Positions 24,307 to 30,126 of a stretch of 64,000 bases of DNA are shown in pieces. The notes under the pieces were generated by a model that did not search any database, was not told the origin of the DNA, and saw only the letters and a program-made list of their open reading frames with translations. Both the position numbers and the translations under genes were made by a program. This DNA comes from an uncultured Candidatus Saccharibacteria bacterium (GTDB taxonomy: Bacteria; Patescibacteriota; Doudnabacteria; UBA920), in assembly GCA_964532425.1 (NCBI GenBank), contig CAZHIA010000005.1:66772-130771 (forward strand). Reading direction: 5' to 3'. Each line of letters starts with the position of its first letter. Within the stretch, counting starts at the first letter, position 1.

Positions 24307-24312
24307 ATTCTG

Positions 24313-24400
24313 GACATTTAACATTTGACCATTGACCTTTGACAAATCATTGTCATTTTTGATTCTAAAATGGTCACATGTTACCTGTTAAAGGTCAAAT
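24313..24400. repeat. Heptamer (TTTGAC / TTTAAC / ATTGAC) repeat blocks in inverted arrangement in the atpD-atpC spacer.
   Basis: Left half in one orientation and right half in the other, giving a composite imperfect palindrome. Confidence 0.6.
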
Positions 24401-24401
24401 G

Positions 24402-25796
24402 TTATGCCTGACTTACCTGCTCAATCCCGCCTTTCATGTAGAAAGCACCTTCCGGCTTGTCGTCATGTCTGCCCTCCAAAATTTCTTTAAACGCGCGGAC
24501 TGTTTCCTTCAGGGGCACATACTCACCTTTTCTACCGGTGAAAACTTCAGCCACAGTAAACGGCTGGGACAGGAAACGCTGGATCTTTCTGGCGCGGGCA
24601 ACGGTAATCTTGTCTTCTTCCGGCAGTTCTTCCATACCCAAAATGGCAATAATATCCTGCAGATCCTTGTAGCGCTGCAGAGTTTGTTGCACGCCGCGGG
24701 CAACCTGGTAGTGTTCAGTACCGACAATGTTCGGATCCAAAATGGTGGAAGTCGAATCAAGAGGGTCGACAGCCGGGTAAATTCCGAGTTCGGTCAATGC
24801 GCGCGATAGCACGACAGTAGAATCCAAGTGGCCGAAGGTAGTGGCCGGAGCCGGGTCAGTTAAGTCATCAGCCGGTACATACACGGCTTGTACGGAAGTG
24901 ATGGAACCGAGCTTGGTGGAAGTGATGCGCTCCTGGAGTTCTCCCATTTCGGTAGCCAGGGTCGGTTGGTATCCTACAGCAGACGGAATACGGCCGAGCA
25001 AAGCTGACACTTCCGAGCCGGCCTGAGTGAAGCGGAAAATGTTATCGATAAACATCAGCACGTCCTGGTGCTGCTCGTCGCGAAAATACTCGGCCATGGA
25101 AAGTCCGGTCAAGGCTACGCGGGCGCGGGCTCCCGGTGGTTCGTTCATTTGTCCGAAGACCATAGCGAGCTTATCGAGCACTTTGGCATCTTTCATTTCG
25201 TGGTAGAGGTCGTTTCCTTCGCGAGTTCTTTCCCCTACTCCGGCGAACACCGAAACTCCGCCGTGTGCCTTGGCAATGTTGTTGATGAGTTCTTGAATAA
25301 CCACGGTTTTGCCCACCCCGGCACCACCAAACAGACCGACTTTACCACCTTTCAGAATCGGACAAATCAAATCAATGACTTTAATACCGGTTTCTAGAAT
25401 TTCCGTCTTCGTTGACTGGTCGGTAAATTTCGGAGCTGGGCGGTGAATAGGATATTTTTCTTTGGTAGACGGCGTTTCACTGCCATCTACGGCATTACCG
25501 AGGACGTTGAAAATGCGTCCGAGGGTTTCTTTTCCGACTGGTACGGAAATTGCAGCGCCAGTATCAACAGCTTCCATGCCGCGCTTGAGGCCATCGGTCG
25601 AGGACATGGCGATGGTACGGACGACACCGCCCGGCAACTGCTGCTGAACTTCCAATACGAGTTTGGGGGAAGTTTTTCCGTTTTTCTGGGTACCGGAAAG
25701 GTCAATCTCGAGGGCGTGAAAAATCTCAGGCAGCGAGCCCTCGAATTTCACGTCCACCACCGGTCCGATGACTTGGGATATGGTTCCTTTGTTCAT
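24402..25796 (-). CDS. atpD: ATP synthase F1 beta subunit
   Basis: Walker [10 protein letters not shown] and DELSEED-like region. 464 aa. Confidence 0.95.
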
Positions 25797-25935
25797 GGTT
25801 TATAAAATTATCCTATTAATCAAGTTAATTAATGTGATACTGATATACGGATGCATGCTGATGATACTGATGAATACGGATAAAGAAATCAGTATTATCC
25901 GTATCATCCGTACTCATTCGTAAATCAGTATCTTA

Positions 25936-26862
25936 TTATTCCAATGCTATTTTACCTGCCGTGATCTCGGCTAGTTCCGTCGTGATCTTGTTCTGGCGCA
26001 GCTGGTTGTAGGTCAAGGTGTAGTCTGCTATCAAATCCCCTGCCGCTTCAGTGGCGTTCTTCATCATGACCATGCGAGCAGAATGTTCGGAAGCATCGCT
26101 TTCCAATATGGCTTGGTAGATCTGGCTCTCGATGATCCGCGGCAACAGGTGATCCAGCACTTCAGCCGGAGTCGGCTCAAACAAATAGTCGGATTCCGCT
26201 ATCGTCTCGGCATGCTCCTGGTGCCAAAGGTCTTCATCTTCCTGCACGTCCTCATATTCCATATCCAGATGCATCGGAGAGGTGCGGACACCTTCCTGGA
26301 TGAACGGCAACAGTTGCCTCACGGTCGGTTTTTGGACAAGGGTAGAAACGAAATGGTTGTAAACCAAAACGATCTTGGCATATTCTCCGGATGCATACGC
26401 ATCGGTAATGTACTTCGCAAGCGGATAAATATCTTGCGTGGTCACGCTTCGGTCCTGCTTTTCGAAGTCAGCGACAATCTGTGCTTTGTTGATCCGGGCC
26501 TGGTCTTTGGCTTTCTTGCCATATACCACAACCTCACTGATCAGCTCATGACTACCTAACTCTTTGAGTTTGGCCGCCAAATTGACATTCAGGCTTCCGA
26601 CAAACCCGCCGTTCGTACCCATAAGGACAACACCTATTTTCTTGGAACGCGGGAATGTTTTGAGCAGCGGGTTGTTGCTGGCGATCTTCTCGGACAGGTT
26701 GAGAATCAGCTCCCAAGCGAGCGTCGAGTAGGTGCGGCTGGCTAATACGGCAGTCTGTGACTTCCGCATCTTAGCAGCCGAAACCATCTGCATCGCGCGC
26801 GTAATCTTGCGGGTGCTTTGGACGCTCTTTATTCTTCGTTTAATATCGCGTAATCCGGCCAT
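25936..26862 (-). CDS. atpG: ATP synthase F1 gamma subunit
   Basis: N-terminus MAGLRDIKRRIKSVQSTRKITRAMQMVSAAKMRKSQ. Confidence 0.9.
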   Translation of the reverse strand: MAGLRDIKRRIKSVQSTRKITRAMQMVSAAKMRKSQTAVLASRTYSTLAWELILNLSEKIASNNPLLKTFPRSKKIGVVLMGTNGGFVGSLNVNLAAKLKELGSHELISEVVVYGKKAKDQARINKAQIVADFEKQDRSVTTQDIYPLAKYITDAYASGEYAKIVLVYNHFVSTLVQKPTVRQLLPFIQEGVRTSPMHLDMEYEDVQEDEDLWHQEHAETIAESDYLFEPTPAEVLDHLLPRIIESQIYQAILESDASEHSARMVMMKNATEAAGDLIADYTLTYNQLRQNKITTELAEITAGKIALE

Positions 26863-26932
26863 AAATTAATTGGGCAAAATTAAGTAAAATTGACAAAATT
26901 GACTAAAATTTTGAACCAGCTAGTTTCGTCAA

Positions 26933-28944: not shown

Positions 28945-29031
28945 AATCGTATTTCCATTGTATTTCTATTTATTTCCATTGTATTTCGAAATATGGCTGA
29001 AATACATTGAAATAAAATTGAAATACTGTTG

Positions 29032-29592
29032 TTAAATGCTCTTAAGAGACTCTTTGATCAGTGCCTCGTCCTTCTTGGCGTCCAGTTTCTGCCTCAGAAT
29101 TTTTTCCGCGGCCTGCGTCACCATGTCGGCAATTTCGGCTTTTGCGCTGGACAAGGCTTTGTCCTTTTCCTGTTTGATCTGCGTCGAAGCTTGCTCAACC
29201 ACCTTCTGTTGTTCTTCCTTGGTCTGGGCAATGGCCCGGTCTTTGGCGGCTCCCGCCTCTGATTGGGCTTTCGTGACGATCTCAGACGCCTGCAGACGCG
29301 CCTTACTCATTTCTTCTTCACGCCACTTGGAGAATTCCTGCTTTTCTTTCTCCACGCGTTCCGCGTCTTGCAGGGATTTTTCTATCCGCTGGGTGCGGGA
29401 TTGAAGGCCCTTCACCAGGCCGGGAAGGATGAGTTTCCAAAAAAGCAGCAATAAAACCGCAAAGTTGACCAACTGAGCAATGAACAACTTGCCGTTCAAG
29501 CCGAGCGTGGCAATGCCGCCCGAAGAAGCACTTTCTGCTGCCACCGCTTCGGATGCTGCATGGGCAACTGGAATAAGAAATTGTATATCCAT
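29032..29592 (-). CDS. atpF: ATP synthase Fo subunit b
   Basis: N-terminal TM followed by a long charged coiled-coil. Confidence 0.85.
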   Translation of the reverse strand: MDIQFLIPVAHAASEAVAAESASSGGIATLGLNGKLFIAQLVNFAVLLLLFWKLILPGLVKGLQSRTQRIEKSLQDAERVEKEKQEFSKWREEEMSKARLQASEIVTKAQSEAGAAKDRAIAQTKEEQQKVVEQASTQIKQEKDKALSSAKAEIADMVTQAAEKILRQKLDAKKDEALIKESLKSI

Positions 29593-29747
29593 AAGTGTGT
29601 TTGAAATACAATGGAAATATATTGAAATAAATGGAAATACAATTGTATATCTACCGTATTTCTACTTTATTTCTATTGTATTTCTGTCGTTAATCTTAAG
29701 TTGTAAATCCCGATAATCGTCACAATGACCATTATCGGTTCTAAAAC

Positions 29748-29966
29748 CTAAAGGGTGAACGTAACGACGAGCGCGTAAATAGCGATAGCTTCAGCGAAGG
29801 CCATACCGAGCAGCATCGGAACGAACAATTTATCGCCACTCTCCGGGTTGCGGCCGATTGATTCCATGGCTTTGCTGGCGATCTTGCCGATGGCAAATGC
29901 CGGGAGGGTGCCGCCGATGGCAATCGTGAAGGCCTTGGCTAATACTGTTGCGACTTCTGGGGTCAT
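29748..29966 (-). CDS. atpE: ATP synthase Fo subunit c
   Basis: 72-aa hairpin proteolipid: [24 protein letters not shown] ... [15 protein letters not shown] gaggaga. Confidence 0.9.
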
Positions 29967-30046
29967 GACTGTCTCCTCTTCGCTTTTCGTGGACTATTTG
30001 TGAGGGAGTTTAAAGTCCCGTTGAGCGAAAAAATAATTATTATGAT

Positions 30047-30117
30047 GTCAACATTTGACACCTGACTTTTGACATTTGACCGAAAGGCCACATGTCAATG
30101 GTCAAAGGTTAAATGTT
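30047..30117. repeat. Heptamer TTTGAC-family composite palindrome in the atpB-atpE spacer.
   Basis: catttgac, ttttgac, atttgac on the left. gtcaatg, gtcaaag, ttaaatg on the right. Confidence 0.6.
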
Positions 30118-30126
30118 TGCAATTTG

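Follow-up and report, generated by a model that had tools for sequence, protein, structure and literature searches.

The intercistronic spacers of the ATP synthase (atp) operon in a 64,000-nucleotide stretch of DNA from an uncultured Candidatus Saccharibacteria bacterium (Patescibacteriota, Doudnabacteria, UBA920; contig CAZHIA010000005.1 of assembly GCA_964532425.1, hereafter the window) contain composite palindromes of 60–120 nt, the arms of which are made of short degenerate tandem repeats. These probably belong to families of miniature palindromic repeats that are dispersed over the genome and resemble the intervening sequences (IVS) of 23S rRNA genes and miniature inverted-repeat transposable elements (MITEs); they would act at the DNA level and be either selfish or mutationally propagated. 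Such elements would persist at any site that tolerates an insertion: in the spaces between cistrons, directly behind stop codons and, now and then, in surface loops of proteins, where they are read in frame. A preliminary description of the window had proposed that every spacer of the operon is a composite palindrome with a repeat unit of its own, and that these structures serve mRNA stability or processing or the control of subunit stoichiometry.

Composite palindromes in the atp spacers and elsewhere

The genes of the operon are core genes in conserved order. They are listed below with the elements between them; repeat periods were obtained with Tandem Repeats Finder (TRF).

23854–31354, minus strand: atp operon, gene order atpI-like, B, E, F, H, A, G, D, C
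31064–31354, minus strand: atpI-like open reading frame (ORF)
30127–31032, minus strand: atpB (ORF)
30050–30117, minus strand: atpB/E composite palindrome, T family; heptamers, TRF period 7; ends AACATTTAAC...GTCAAATGTT
29748–29966, minus strand: atpE (ORF)
29603–29684, minus strand: atpE/F composite palindrome, A family; GAAATAC-type units, TRF period 10–11
29032–29592, minus strand: atpF (ORF)
28949–29026, minus strand: atpF/H composite palindrome, A family; 47-nt arms, 77% complementary; TRF period 11
28552–28944, minus strand: atpH (ORF)
28446–28546, minus strand: atpH/A composite palindrome; CCGGAT, ACGGAT and CAGAT units, contains CAGATATCTG; TRF period 18–19
26933–28435, minus strand: atpA (ORF)
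26863–26912, minus strand: atpA/G direct array of AATTTTnnn(n) units; TRF period 10, 3.6 copies; not palindromic
25936–26862, minus strand: atpG (ORF)
25836–25932, minus strand: atpG/D composite palindrome, G family; ends GATACTGAT...ATCAGTATC; TRF period 9
24402–25796, minus strand: atpD (ORF)
24315–24401, minus strand: atpD/C composite palindrome, T family; inverted repeats, ends align with the T family
23854–24309, minus strand: atpC (ORF)

The sense strand of each spacer was folded with RNAfold and compared with 300 dinucleotide shuffles. Five of the seven spacers that hold an element or array fold far better than their shuffled controls: B/E (−46.0 kcal/mol, z −4.9), E/F (−41.5 kcal/mol, z −6.9), F/H (−19.2 kcal/mol, z −5.4), H/A (−49.0 kcal/mol, z −6.1) and G/D (−40.6 kcal/mol, z −5.4). 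The D/C spacer is marginal (−21.8 kcal/mol, z −2.3), the A/G spacer is no different from shuffles (−9.6 kcal/mol, z −1.3), and the 31-nt spacer between the atpI-like gene and atpB holds no element. The capacity to form long stem-loops in the polycistronic RNA, as envisaged in the preliminary description, is thus borne out for five spacers (z −4.9 to −6.9), and so is the composite palindrome itself; D/C is a borderline case, and neither A/G nor atpI-like/atpB is palindromic. The statement that the two halves of each spacer are reverse-complementary fails at A/G, where only direct repeats are found; this array may be a half or a decayed element. The repeat units quoted there were all recovered at the places given by inspection of the sequence, by an inverted-repeat scan and by TRF, namely TTTGAC-type heptamers in D/C and B/E, GAAATACAATGG / CCATTGTATTTC in E/F and F/H, CCGGAT plus CAGATATCTG in H/A, AAAATTGAC-like 10-mers (3.6 copies) in A/G, and GATACTGAT and TACGGAT in G/D. 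The atp palindromes of the window contain no ORF and the elements start 0–10 nt past the stop codons, leaving the start regions free. In the E/F and B/E spacers a second, different hairpin, which the preliminary description does not distinguish, accompanies the composite palindrome.

Inverted-repeat, sliding-fold and TRF scans over the whole 64 kb revealed long A+T-rich palindromes in about twelve other spacers between unrelated genes. Their neighbours include genes for a tRNA-binding-domain protein, murJ and lepA, DUF4012 and FtsW-family genes, and mraY-like, type IV secretion system (T4SS)-coupling-protein-like and sigma-factor-like genes, among others.

6691–6832, 15150–15225, 38920–38972, 53331–53448 and 56291–56350: palindromes outside the atp spacers
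23787–23853, minus strand: palindrome of GTGTCCATTCG units 3' of atpC; inverted repeat, 100% complementary
44223–44312, minus strand: composite palindrome of ACAGAT/ACAAAT units, period 10, between murJ and lepA; 45-nt arms, 78% complementary
48069–48154, minus strand: T-family palindrome between a DUF4012 gene and an FtsW-family gene (PF01098)
58893–58954, minus strand: T-family palindrome straddling the start of a TrwB/T4SS coupling-protein-like ORF; 94% complementary
60322–60398, minus strand: composite palindrome of CAGATG units, period 8; z −5.5

Nearly every arm contains a TRF array, with copies 72–94% matched and periods of 6 to 11. Among 47 elements from the window and its relatives, the best period was 7 nt in 17, 8 nt in nine, 10 nt in seven and 9 nt in four; requiring an exact period match of 0.6 or more for an element to count as "composite" proved too strict, since the unit length varies. 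The arms are complementary to 0.78 in register and to 0.54 when shifted by one unit, and units within an arm resemble each other to 0.54. This points to whole-arm mirror copies and not to two independent arrays. Transition-type changes account for 194 of the 364 mismatches, compared to about one third expected for random non-pairs, although the scoring favoured transitions; the excess is consistent with the decay of once-perfect palindromes. The same architecture is present in atp spacers of ten relatives (loci L002, L003, L004, L015, L083, L086, L090, L095, L108 and L117). A literature search on such repeats in Patescibacteria or the Candidate Phyla Radiation (CPR) returned nothing on point.

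The long stems past stop codons could suggest intrinsic terminators or attenuators between cistrons, and the palindrome behind atpC, with a perfect 20-bp core followed by a T-rich tail, indeed gave a terminator-like match at 23840–23807 and is likely the terminator of the operon. For the six intercistronic elements this explanation is extremely improbable: none has a T run after its stem and none was matched in the terminator scan. Ordinary short G+C-rich hairpins with a T run are used elsewhere in the window (spacers 1258–1346, 20925–21004, 42315–42380 and 56673–56763), which sets the composite palindromes apart as a separate class. In the relative L002 (11730–11940, 3' of atpC) a composite palindrome made of CATGTAAC units encloses an ordinary G+C-rich terminator (GAAACCGGACTTCGTCCGGTTTTTTG) in its loop, so that the distal arm would lie past the termination point.

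Repeat families, gene cassettes and in-frame copies

The 64 kb contain five full copies of the T family, in the D/C and B/E spacers, at 48069–48154 and 58893–58954 and as the flanks of the gene at 12466–12852, as well as two half copies in gyrB and a murD-like gene. In terminal alignments the five full copies share the ends AACATTTGAC...GTCAAATGTT and the in-register order of the heptamers, with the consensus AACATTTGACCTTTGACCnTTAACATTTGACC on the left and ...GTCAAATGTCAAATGTT on the right. The A family links two neighbouring spacers, the E/F and F/H elements matching at 41 of 45 nt, and the H/A element matches the B/E element of L086 at 45 of 51 nt. The idea of one unit per spacer is therefore to be given up for D/C and B/E, whose T family extends to at least three further loci of the window, and for E/F and F/H. 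The unit ascribed to G/D alone also turned out not to be private, as its family occurs in another genus: three copies of the G family (GATACTGAT...ATCAGTATC) are known from two genomes of two genera. The G/D elements of the window and of L083 are identical at 83 of 98 positions, the window G/D and L083 H/A elements at 82 of 95, and the two L083 copies at 85 of 98; non-orthologous copies are thus as alike as orthologous ones. In comparison, identity at third codon positions between the window and L083 is no more than 41–47% for atpE, F, H, A and G. The similarity, which is far above the neutral expectation and independent of position, hence belongs to the family and not to the locus. These family relations were obtained from directed pairwise and terminal alignments.

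Purely local mutation, in which slippage expands the units and template switching within the hairpin (quasipalindrome correction) mirrors the arm with neither mobility nor a trans-acting factor, would explain several of these properties. The degenerate units vary in length and are in many cases private to their locus, heptamers dominate as in slippage-prone long simple repeats (PMC4679880), and the transition-rich, strand-symmetric mismatches are those expected from the decay of once-perfect DNA palindromes. It does not account for five T-family copies with common ends and a common in-register order of units, nor for G copies of about 98 nt that are 85–87% identical across loci and genera, nor for the same ends flanking unrelated inserted genes, and we regard it as unlikely.

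The inserted genes are found in cassettes. One of these belongs to the T family.

12423–12881, minus strand: T-family cassette with a gene at 12466–12852 and inverted heptamer arrays at 12853–12881 and 12423–12457

The product of 12466–12852 is a four-helix-bundle "23S rRNA intervening sequence protein" (PF05635/TIGR02436) according to Pfam and NCBIfam, and the flanking TTTGAC arrays pair at −21.0 kcal/mol (z −4.8). The cassette lies between genes for a NYN-domain and a PIN-domain protein, and its downstream array enters the first codons of the PIN gene. Similar cassettes occur in atp spacers of relatives, with a TIGR02436 gene in the A/G spacer of L089 and GxxExxY genes (TIGR04256, PF13366) in the D/C spacers of L090 and L093; their flanking inverted arrays pair at −25 to −45 kcal/mol. 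Overall, the pairing of cassette flanks in the window and its relatives reaches z −4.8 to −12.4. L090 also carries a solo palindrome of the TACTAAA family, the family of its cassette. Inverted arrays like those of the solo palindromes thus also form the ends of cassettes encoding PF05635 or GxxExxY PD-(D/E)XK proteins. According to literature, the 23S IVS of Coxiella is a selfish element with an ORF for an S23p protein (PF05635 family), is excised by RNase III and carries two or three tandem GACAGAT heptamers at the RNase III cut (PMC4990558). Short IVS-type insertions devoid of ORFs were reported together with 23S_rRNA_IVP ORFs in rRNA genes of CPR bacteria (PMC11270868), and PF05635 genes were found wedged between the genes of cas operons (PMC3936711).

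Small ORFs of 72–132 amino acids (aa) were also observed in relatives between atpH and atpA, atpA and atpG, or atpG and atpD; seven of the twelve were scanned and gave no Pfam or NCBIfam match. Their sites are L094 4187–4474 and 6969–7283, L090 5741–5983 and 6945–7262, L089 2047–2433, L093 2736–3134, L098 2618–2836 and 6959–7267, L087 1827–2153, and L086 3806–4063 and 5668–5979. In L091 a nucleoside 2-deoxyribosyltransferase-like gene lies between atpD and atpC.

Copies are not confined to spacers, and three of them are read in frame within coding genes of the window.

43948–44021, minus strand: composite palindrome in lepA, AAGTTCA heptamers; 74 nt, in frame; 26-nt arms, 92% complementary
2916–2947, minus strand: T-family half-element (GTCAAAT array) in gyrB; in frame, ends in GTCAAATGTT followed by CC
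50285–50316, minus strand: T-family half-element in a murD-like gene; in frame, ends in GTCAAATGTT followed by CC

By comparison with three solved LepA structures, the lepA insert lengthens a β-hairpin by 14 residues, 8 + 6 extra and symmetric about a DG turn. Among 25 LepA homologues of 77–89% identity, which are otherwise nearly invariant, exactly this loop is a hypervariable site of insertion and deletion. It precedes the LIDTPGH motif, is empty in the 597-aa forms and bears unrelated inserts of 8–35 residues in others, as would be expected of a local mutational hotspot. In one homologue (P0038, 744 aa, L162 6001–8235) a whole GxxExxY nuclease domain is read in frame in the loop and is flanked in the DNA by inverted ACGGAC/GTCCGT arrays, and in the lepA gene of L163 (6001–7896) the insert is an inverted array of CCAAT/ATTGG heptamers. 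In the closest LepA relative, L164 (87%), the spacers of the lepA region contain no composite palindromes. The half-elements of gyrB and the murD-like gene both encode SNVKGQ-like peptides. As for the murD-like ORF itself (608 aa, 49318–51144), its true start is probably MELKDLDQKL, about 138 codons further in; the extension upstream of it looks spurious.

Strand symmetry and the orthologous junctions

A stem that is maintained in the transcript tolerates G:U pairs but not A:C mismatches. Composite arms show no such bias: over 36 elements, each oriented according to the genes around it, 100 G:U stand against 94 A:C (p = 0.72), the ratio is homogeneous between elements (chi-square 26.1, 36 df, p = 0.89), and the minimum free energies of sense and antisense strands differ by a mean of −0.5 kcal/mol (p = 0.73). 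A hairpin in the same operon served as positive control for the same pipeline.

29700–29747, minus strand: small G+C-richer hairpin at the atpE stop, directly 3' of the stop codon
29973–30033, minus strand: conserved atpE leader; hairpin and GAGGAG Shine-Dalgarno sequence, no composite repeat

The post-atpE hairpin was found at the same place and in the same shape in 15 relatives, with differing stem sequences, and also in relatives without composite palindromes. In 15 genomes it gave 34 G:U against 5 A:C (p = 2.4e-6). Since this bias goes along with a retained place and shape despite different stems, the post-atpE hairpin behaves as a selected RNA structure, and the composite palindromes do not. 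An RNAalifold consensus of four sequences, the alignment of which was poor, retained the outer stem with one compensatory pair only; the case is built on the hairpins found in each single sequence and on the numbers of G:U and A:C. Plausibly, the hairpin serves the c subunit, which is present in high copy, as a 3' stabiliser or as an attenuator. As to the leader, its motif CGGGACnTTAAA...GTCC, then GAAAAGnAGGAG (GAAAAGnAGGA), recurs upstream of atpE in L083, L084, L086, L090, L094 and L098.

Orthologous junctions give a patchy picture. At F/H, elements occur in the window, L083 and L086 (87–96 nt), whereas the spacer is 36 nt in L084, 19 nt in L094 and 4 nt in L091; at H/A, elements are found in the window and L083, and the spacer measures 31, 18 and 10 nt in L084, L090 and L091. 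Some other relatives have small ORFs there instead of elements, and in the more distant CPR genomes L005, L010, L011, L021 and L041 the spacers measure 1–36 nt. The composite palindromes are thus dispensable at atp junctions. Alignments of orthologous spacers are convincing over shuffled controls only for G/D, H/A and B/E, with F/H as a borderline case (z 2.8); no relative was close enough for covariation between orthologous spacers.

These findings bear on the proposal that adaptive intercistronic hairpins set mRNA stability, processing or translational coupling and, in consequence, the subunit ratios of the ATP synthase. That five of the seven spacers are predicted to fold strongly would fit, as would the placement shortly after stop codons with free start regions, the palindromes in atp spacers of relatives down to about 63–76% AtpA identity and a G/D element far more conserved than synonymous sites. 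A device specific to the atp operon is nevertheless not supported. Like palindromes occur in the other window spacers, between unrelated genes and inside lepA, gyrB and the murD-like gene; the arm mismatches are strand-symmetric, unlike those of the post-atpE hairpin, and the folding energies of sense and antisense are equal. Patchiness at orthologous junctions also argues against such a device: close relatives have spacers of 4–36 nt, and where the gene order is the same, spacers of relatives often measure 1–36 nt, an outcome that the preliminary description itself had named as a refutation. Likewise, the presence of elements is unrelated to subunit copy number, and the G-family likeness is as high in non-orthologous as in orthologous spacers. 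We therefore consider adaptive hairpins improbable. Closer to the evidence is the alternative offered in the preliminary description, that the spacers are landing pads for repeat elements: the palindromes are members of the repeat families themselves, and like arrays flank inserted genes.

Strand-symmetric conservation would also be in line with sites that act in the DNA, such as arrays for a binding protein, cruciforms involved in supercoiling or the nucleoid, or −35 boxes derived from the TTGACA-like T units. Some periods are 10–11 nt, T units contain TTGAC, the D/C element has a promoter-like match, and canonical promoters of the type TTGACA-N17-TATAAT occur elsewhere in the window. Several unrelated unit families with one architecture are, however, not explained by a single binding protein, the commonest period of 7 is not the helical repeat, and copies in coding genes and around inserted ORFs are unexpected for regulatory sites, so that this explanation appears very unlikely.

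Further features of the operon and of the window were noted. A promoter-like site upstream of the atpI-like gene is likely the sigma-70-like promoter of the operon, judged by its match to the consensus.

31367–31395, minus strand: TTGACA-17-TAAATT, 10 of 12 consensus positions

Pfam matches within the operon comprise ATPase_gene1, ATP-synt_A, ATP-synt_C, ATP-synt_B, OSCP and ATP-synt_DE_N; AtpA and AtpG were assigned by homology and atpD by position and its match to relatives. The nearest AtpA in a species-level genome collection is 76% identical. For AtpG the best metagenome match has 68% identity, and a single Logan contig is identical to the window. Downstream of the operon, a lysine-rich tiny ORF (MATKKKVAKKKAAPKKKSSKKRI; window 22757–23059, minus strand) with a conserved leader GGGAGACTAG and a terminator behind it is kept downstream of the atp region in L002 (12199–12624) and L090 (10670–10929). 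Hairpins were also seen between the genes of a three-tRNA cluster at 18490–19048 of the window, and in L090 (11557–11925) tRNA genes are separated by a composite palindrome made of AAGTTAT units. Another dispersed, G+C-richer repeat of the type GTCATyCyGAGcGAGTGCATCCGAG...GAATC...GGATGAC occupies spacers of the window (6109–6243) and of several relatives (L090 2767–2898; L083 3016–3276; L098 8696–8774; L093 about 3150–3269). Rfam gave just four tRNAs at gathering score in the window, and no rRNA was found there.

Relation to known repeats and consequences

Among the closest known systems are the 23S rRNA IVS described from Coxiella, Leptospira, Salmonella and CPR rRNA genes. Like the elements described here, they have inverted ends that form a long stem with tandem heptamers in it (GACAGAT in Coxiella, PMC4990558), an optional PF05635 ORF (window 12466–12852; A/G of L089), short forms without ORF, a higher A+T content than the host and a sporadic distribution. 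The window copies differ in that they lie in mRNA spacers and coding loops, not in 23S helices 9, 25 or 45, that there are several unit families per genome and that like cassettes also bear GxxExxY ORFs; excision is known for IVS and would here be presumed.

The Correia (nemis) elements of Neisseria and the enterobacterial repetitive intergenic consensus (ERIC, also intergenic repeat unit, IRU) are imperfect palindromes of about 70–150 nt that occur in many copies, intergenically within transcription units. In mRNA they fold into long hairpins, which are reportedly targets of RNase III or influence how stable the flanking segment is. The T and G families resemble them as multi-copy families with conserved terminal inverted repeats. 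They are distinguished by arms made of tandem sub-repeats, by many small families in place of one dominant consensus, and by ORF-bearing relatives that encode IVS-type proteins (PF05635, GxxExxY) and no transposase. In Rickettsia, palindromic elements (RPE) are found in frame in coding genes, where they add surface peptides and leave the protein intact; they form a few well-defined families of about 100–150 nt without tandem sub-repeats. The in-frame copies in lepA, gyrB and the murD-like gene are comparable, but most copies here are intergenic and at least one relative has a whole nuclease domain at the lepA site.

Short tandemly repeated repetitive (STRR) sequences of cyanobacteria and the TAACTGA repeats of Beggiatoaceae share with the window elements the intergenic head-to-tail arrays and the preference for 7 nt. 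Hairpins between co-transcribed genes can arise from STRR arrays (PMC2670836), and heptamer dominance and intergenic position are documented for long simple repeats (PMC4679880). The elements described here differ by degenerate units of mixed length (7–11 nt), whole-arm mirror copies with family-specific ends, and their occurrence in Patescibacteria with a very small genome. The AtpA search also returned a cyanobacterial metagenome-assembled genome (L067 4193–8689) with near-perfect inverted heptamers (AGGAGTT)n ... (AACTCAT)n in its atp spacers, an STRR-like analogue. Repetitive extragenic palindromes (REP) and the mosaic elements built from them (BIME) likewise stand at the 3' ends of genes in operons and are thought to affect mRNA stability (PMC3733652). 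With 20–40 nt, GTAG or CGTC heads and an associated tyrosine transposase (RAYT) gene they are nevertheless distinct; the present elements of 60–120 nt have ends of the AACATTTGAC or GATACTGAT type without GTAG/CGTC head, no Y1 transposase was found in the window, and REP/RAYT was rejected as an identity. Integron attC sites were rejected as well, as inspection of the T family showed only chance-level partial matches (RYYYAAC...GTTRRRY), no integrase was found in the window and the atp genes belong to the core set, with their order conserved; CRISPR-like arrays were considered and dismissed.

The families could spread by a nuclease-driven, homing-like process, for which the GxxExxY protein is a candidate, by slippage together with template switching, or by both. 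Their arms are degenerate tandem arrays of units mostly of 7 nt and otherwise of 8–11 nt. As the elements are co-transcribed with the atp genes, AU-rich stems of 25–50 bp should form in the polycistronic mRNA. By analogy with the stems of IVS, these stems are probable substrates of RNase III, cleavage by which would segment the mRNA as a side effect and not as a designed control of stoichiometry.

Several points weigh against repeat families as the origin of the palindromes. According to Pfam, no transposase, RAYT or integrase gene is present in the window, and inspection of the few T- and G-family flanks revealed no consistent target-site duplication. When 205 spacers were compared with one another by blastn (E < 1e-6), only the G/D pair of the window and L083 was returned besides tRNAs. 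Many elements have no detected sibling in the sequences compared, so that local growth is possible for those, and the copy numbers refer to 64 kb and short loci of relatives. The conservation of the G family across genera (about 85%) could reflect purifying selection at the level of the host, and strand-symmetric mismatches are also compatible with an RNA function of threshold type, for which about 20% of mismatches would be no obstacle. The window contains no rnc gene, and cleavage by RNase III is a prediction by analogy.

How IVS elements move has been described as unclear (PMC4990558). Solo palindromes, IVS and GxxExxY cassettes and an in-frame LepA nuclease domain, taken together, lead to a hypothesis on the nature and movement of IVS, which we put forward tentatively as a possible but rather doubtful generalisation: IVS may be only the visible part of a wider class of mobile elements that seek out hairpins and have inverted short-tandem-repeat ends. 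Autonomous forms of such a class would carry a GxxExxY nuclease or an S23p/Avd-like four-helix-bundle protein, and the composite palindromes would be their ORF-less derivatives. The class would colonise spacers of core operons (atp), tRNA spacers and DNA encoding β-hairpin loops of proteins, as in lepA, where it is translated in frame. If this is true, the transcribed stems would be RNase III sites and the elements would recast operon mRNAs into processed segments.

Counting G:U against A:C, with a control hairpin taken from the operon itself, distinguishes selected RNA hairpins from other palindromes at little cost and can be used in other genomes. CPR bacteria (Patescibacteria) have genomes of about 1 Mb, which are regarded as streamlined. 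The present repeats occupy almost all spacers of a core operon and enter the reading frames of essential genes, which indicates that such small genomes are still shaped by selfish or mutationally driven DNA.

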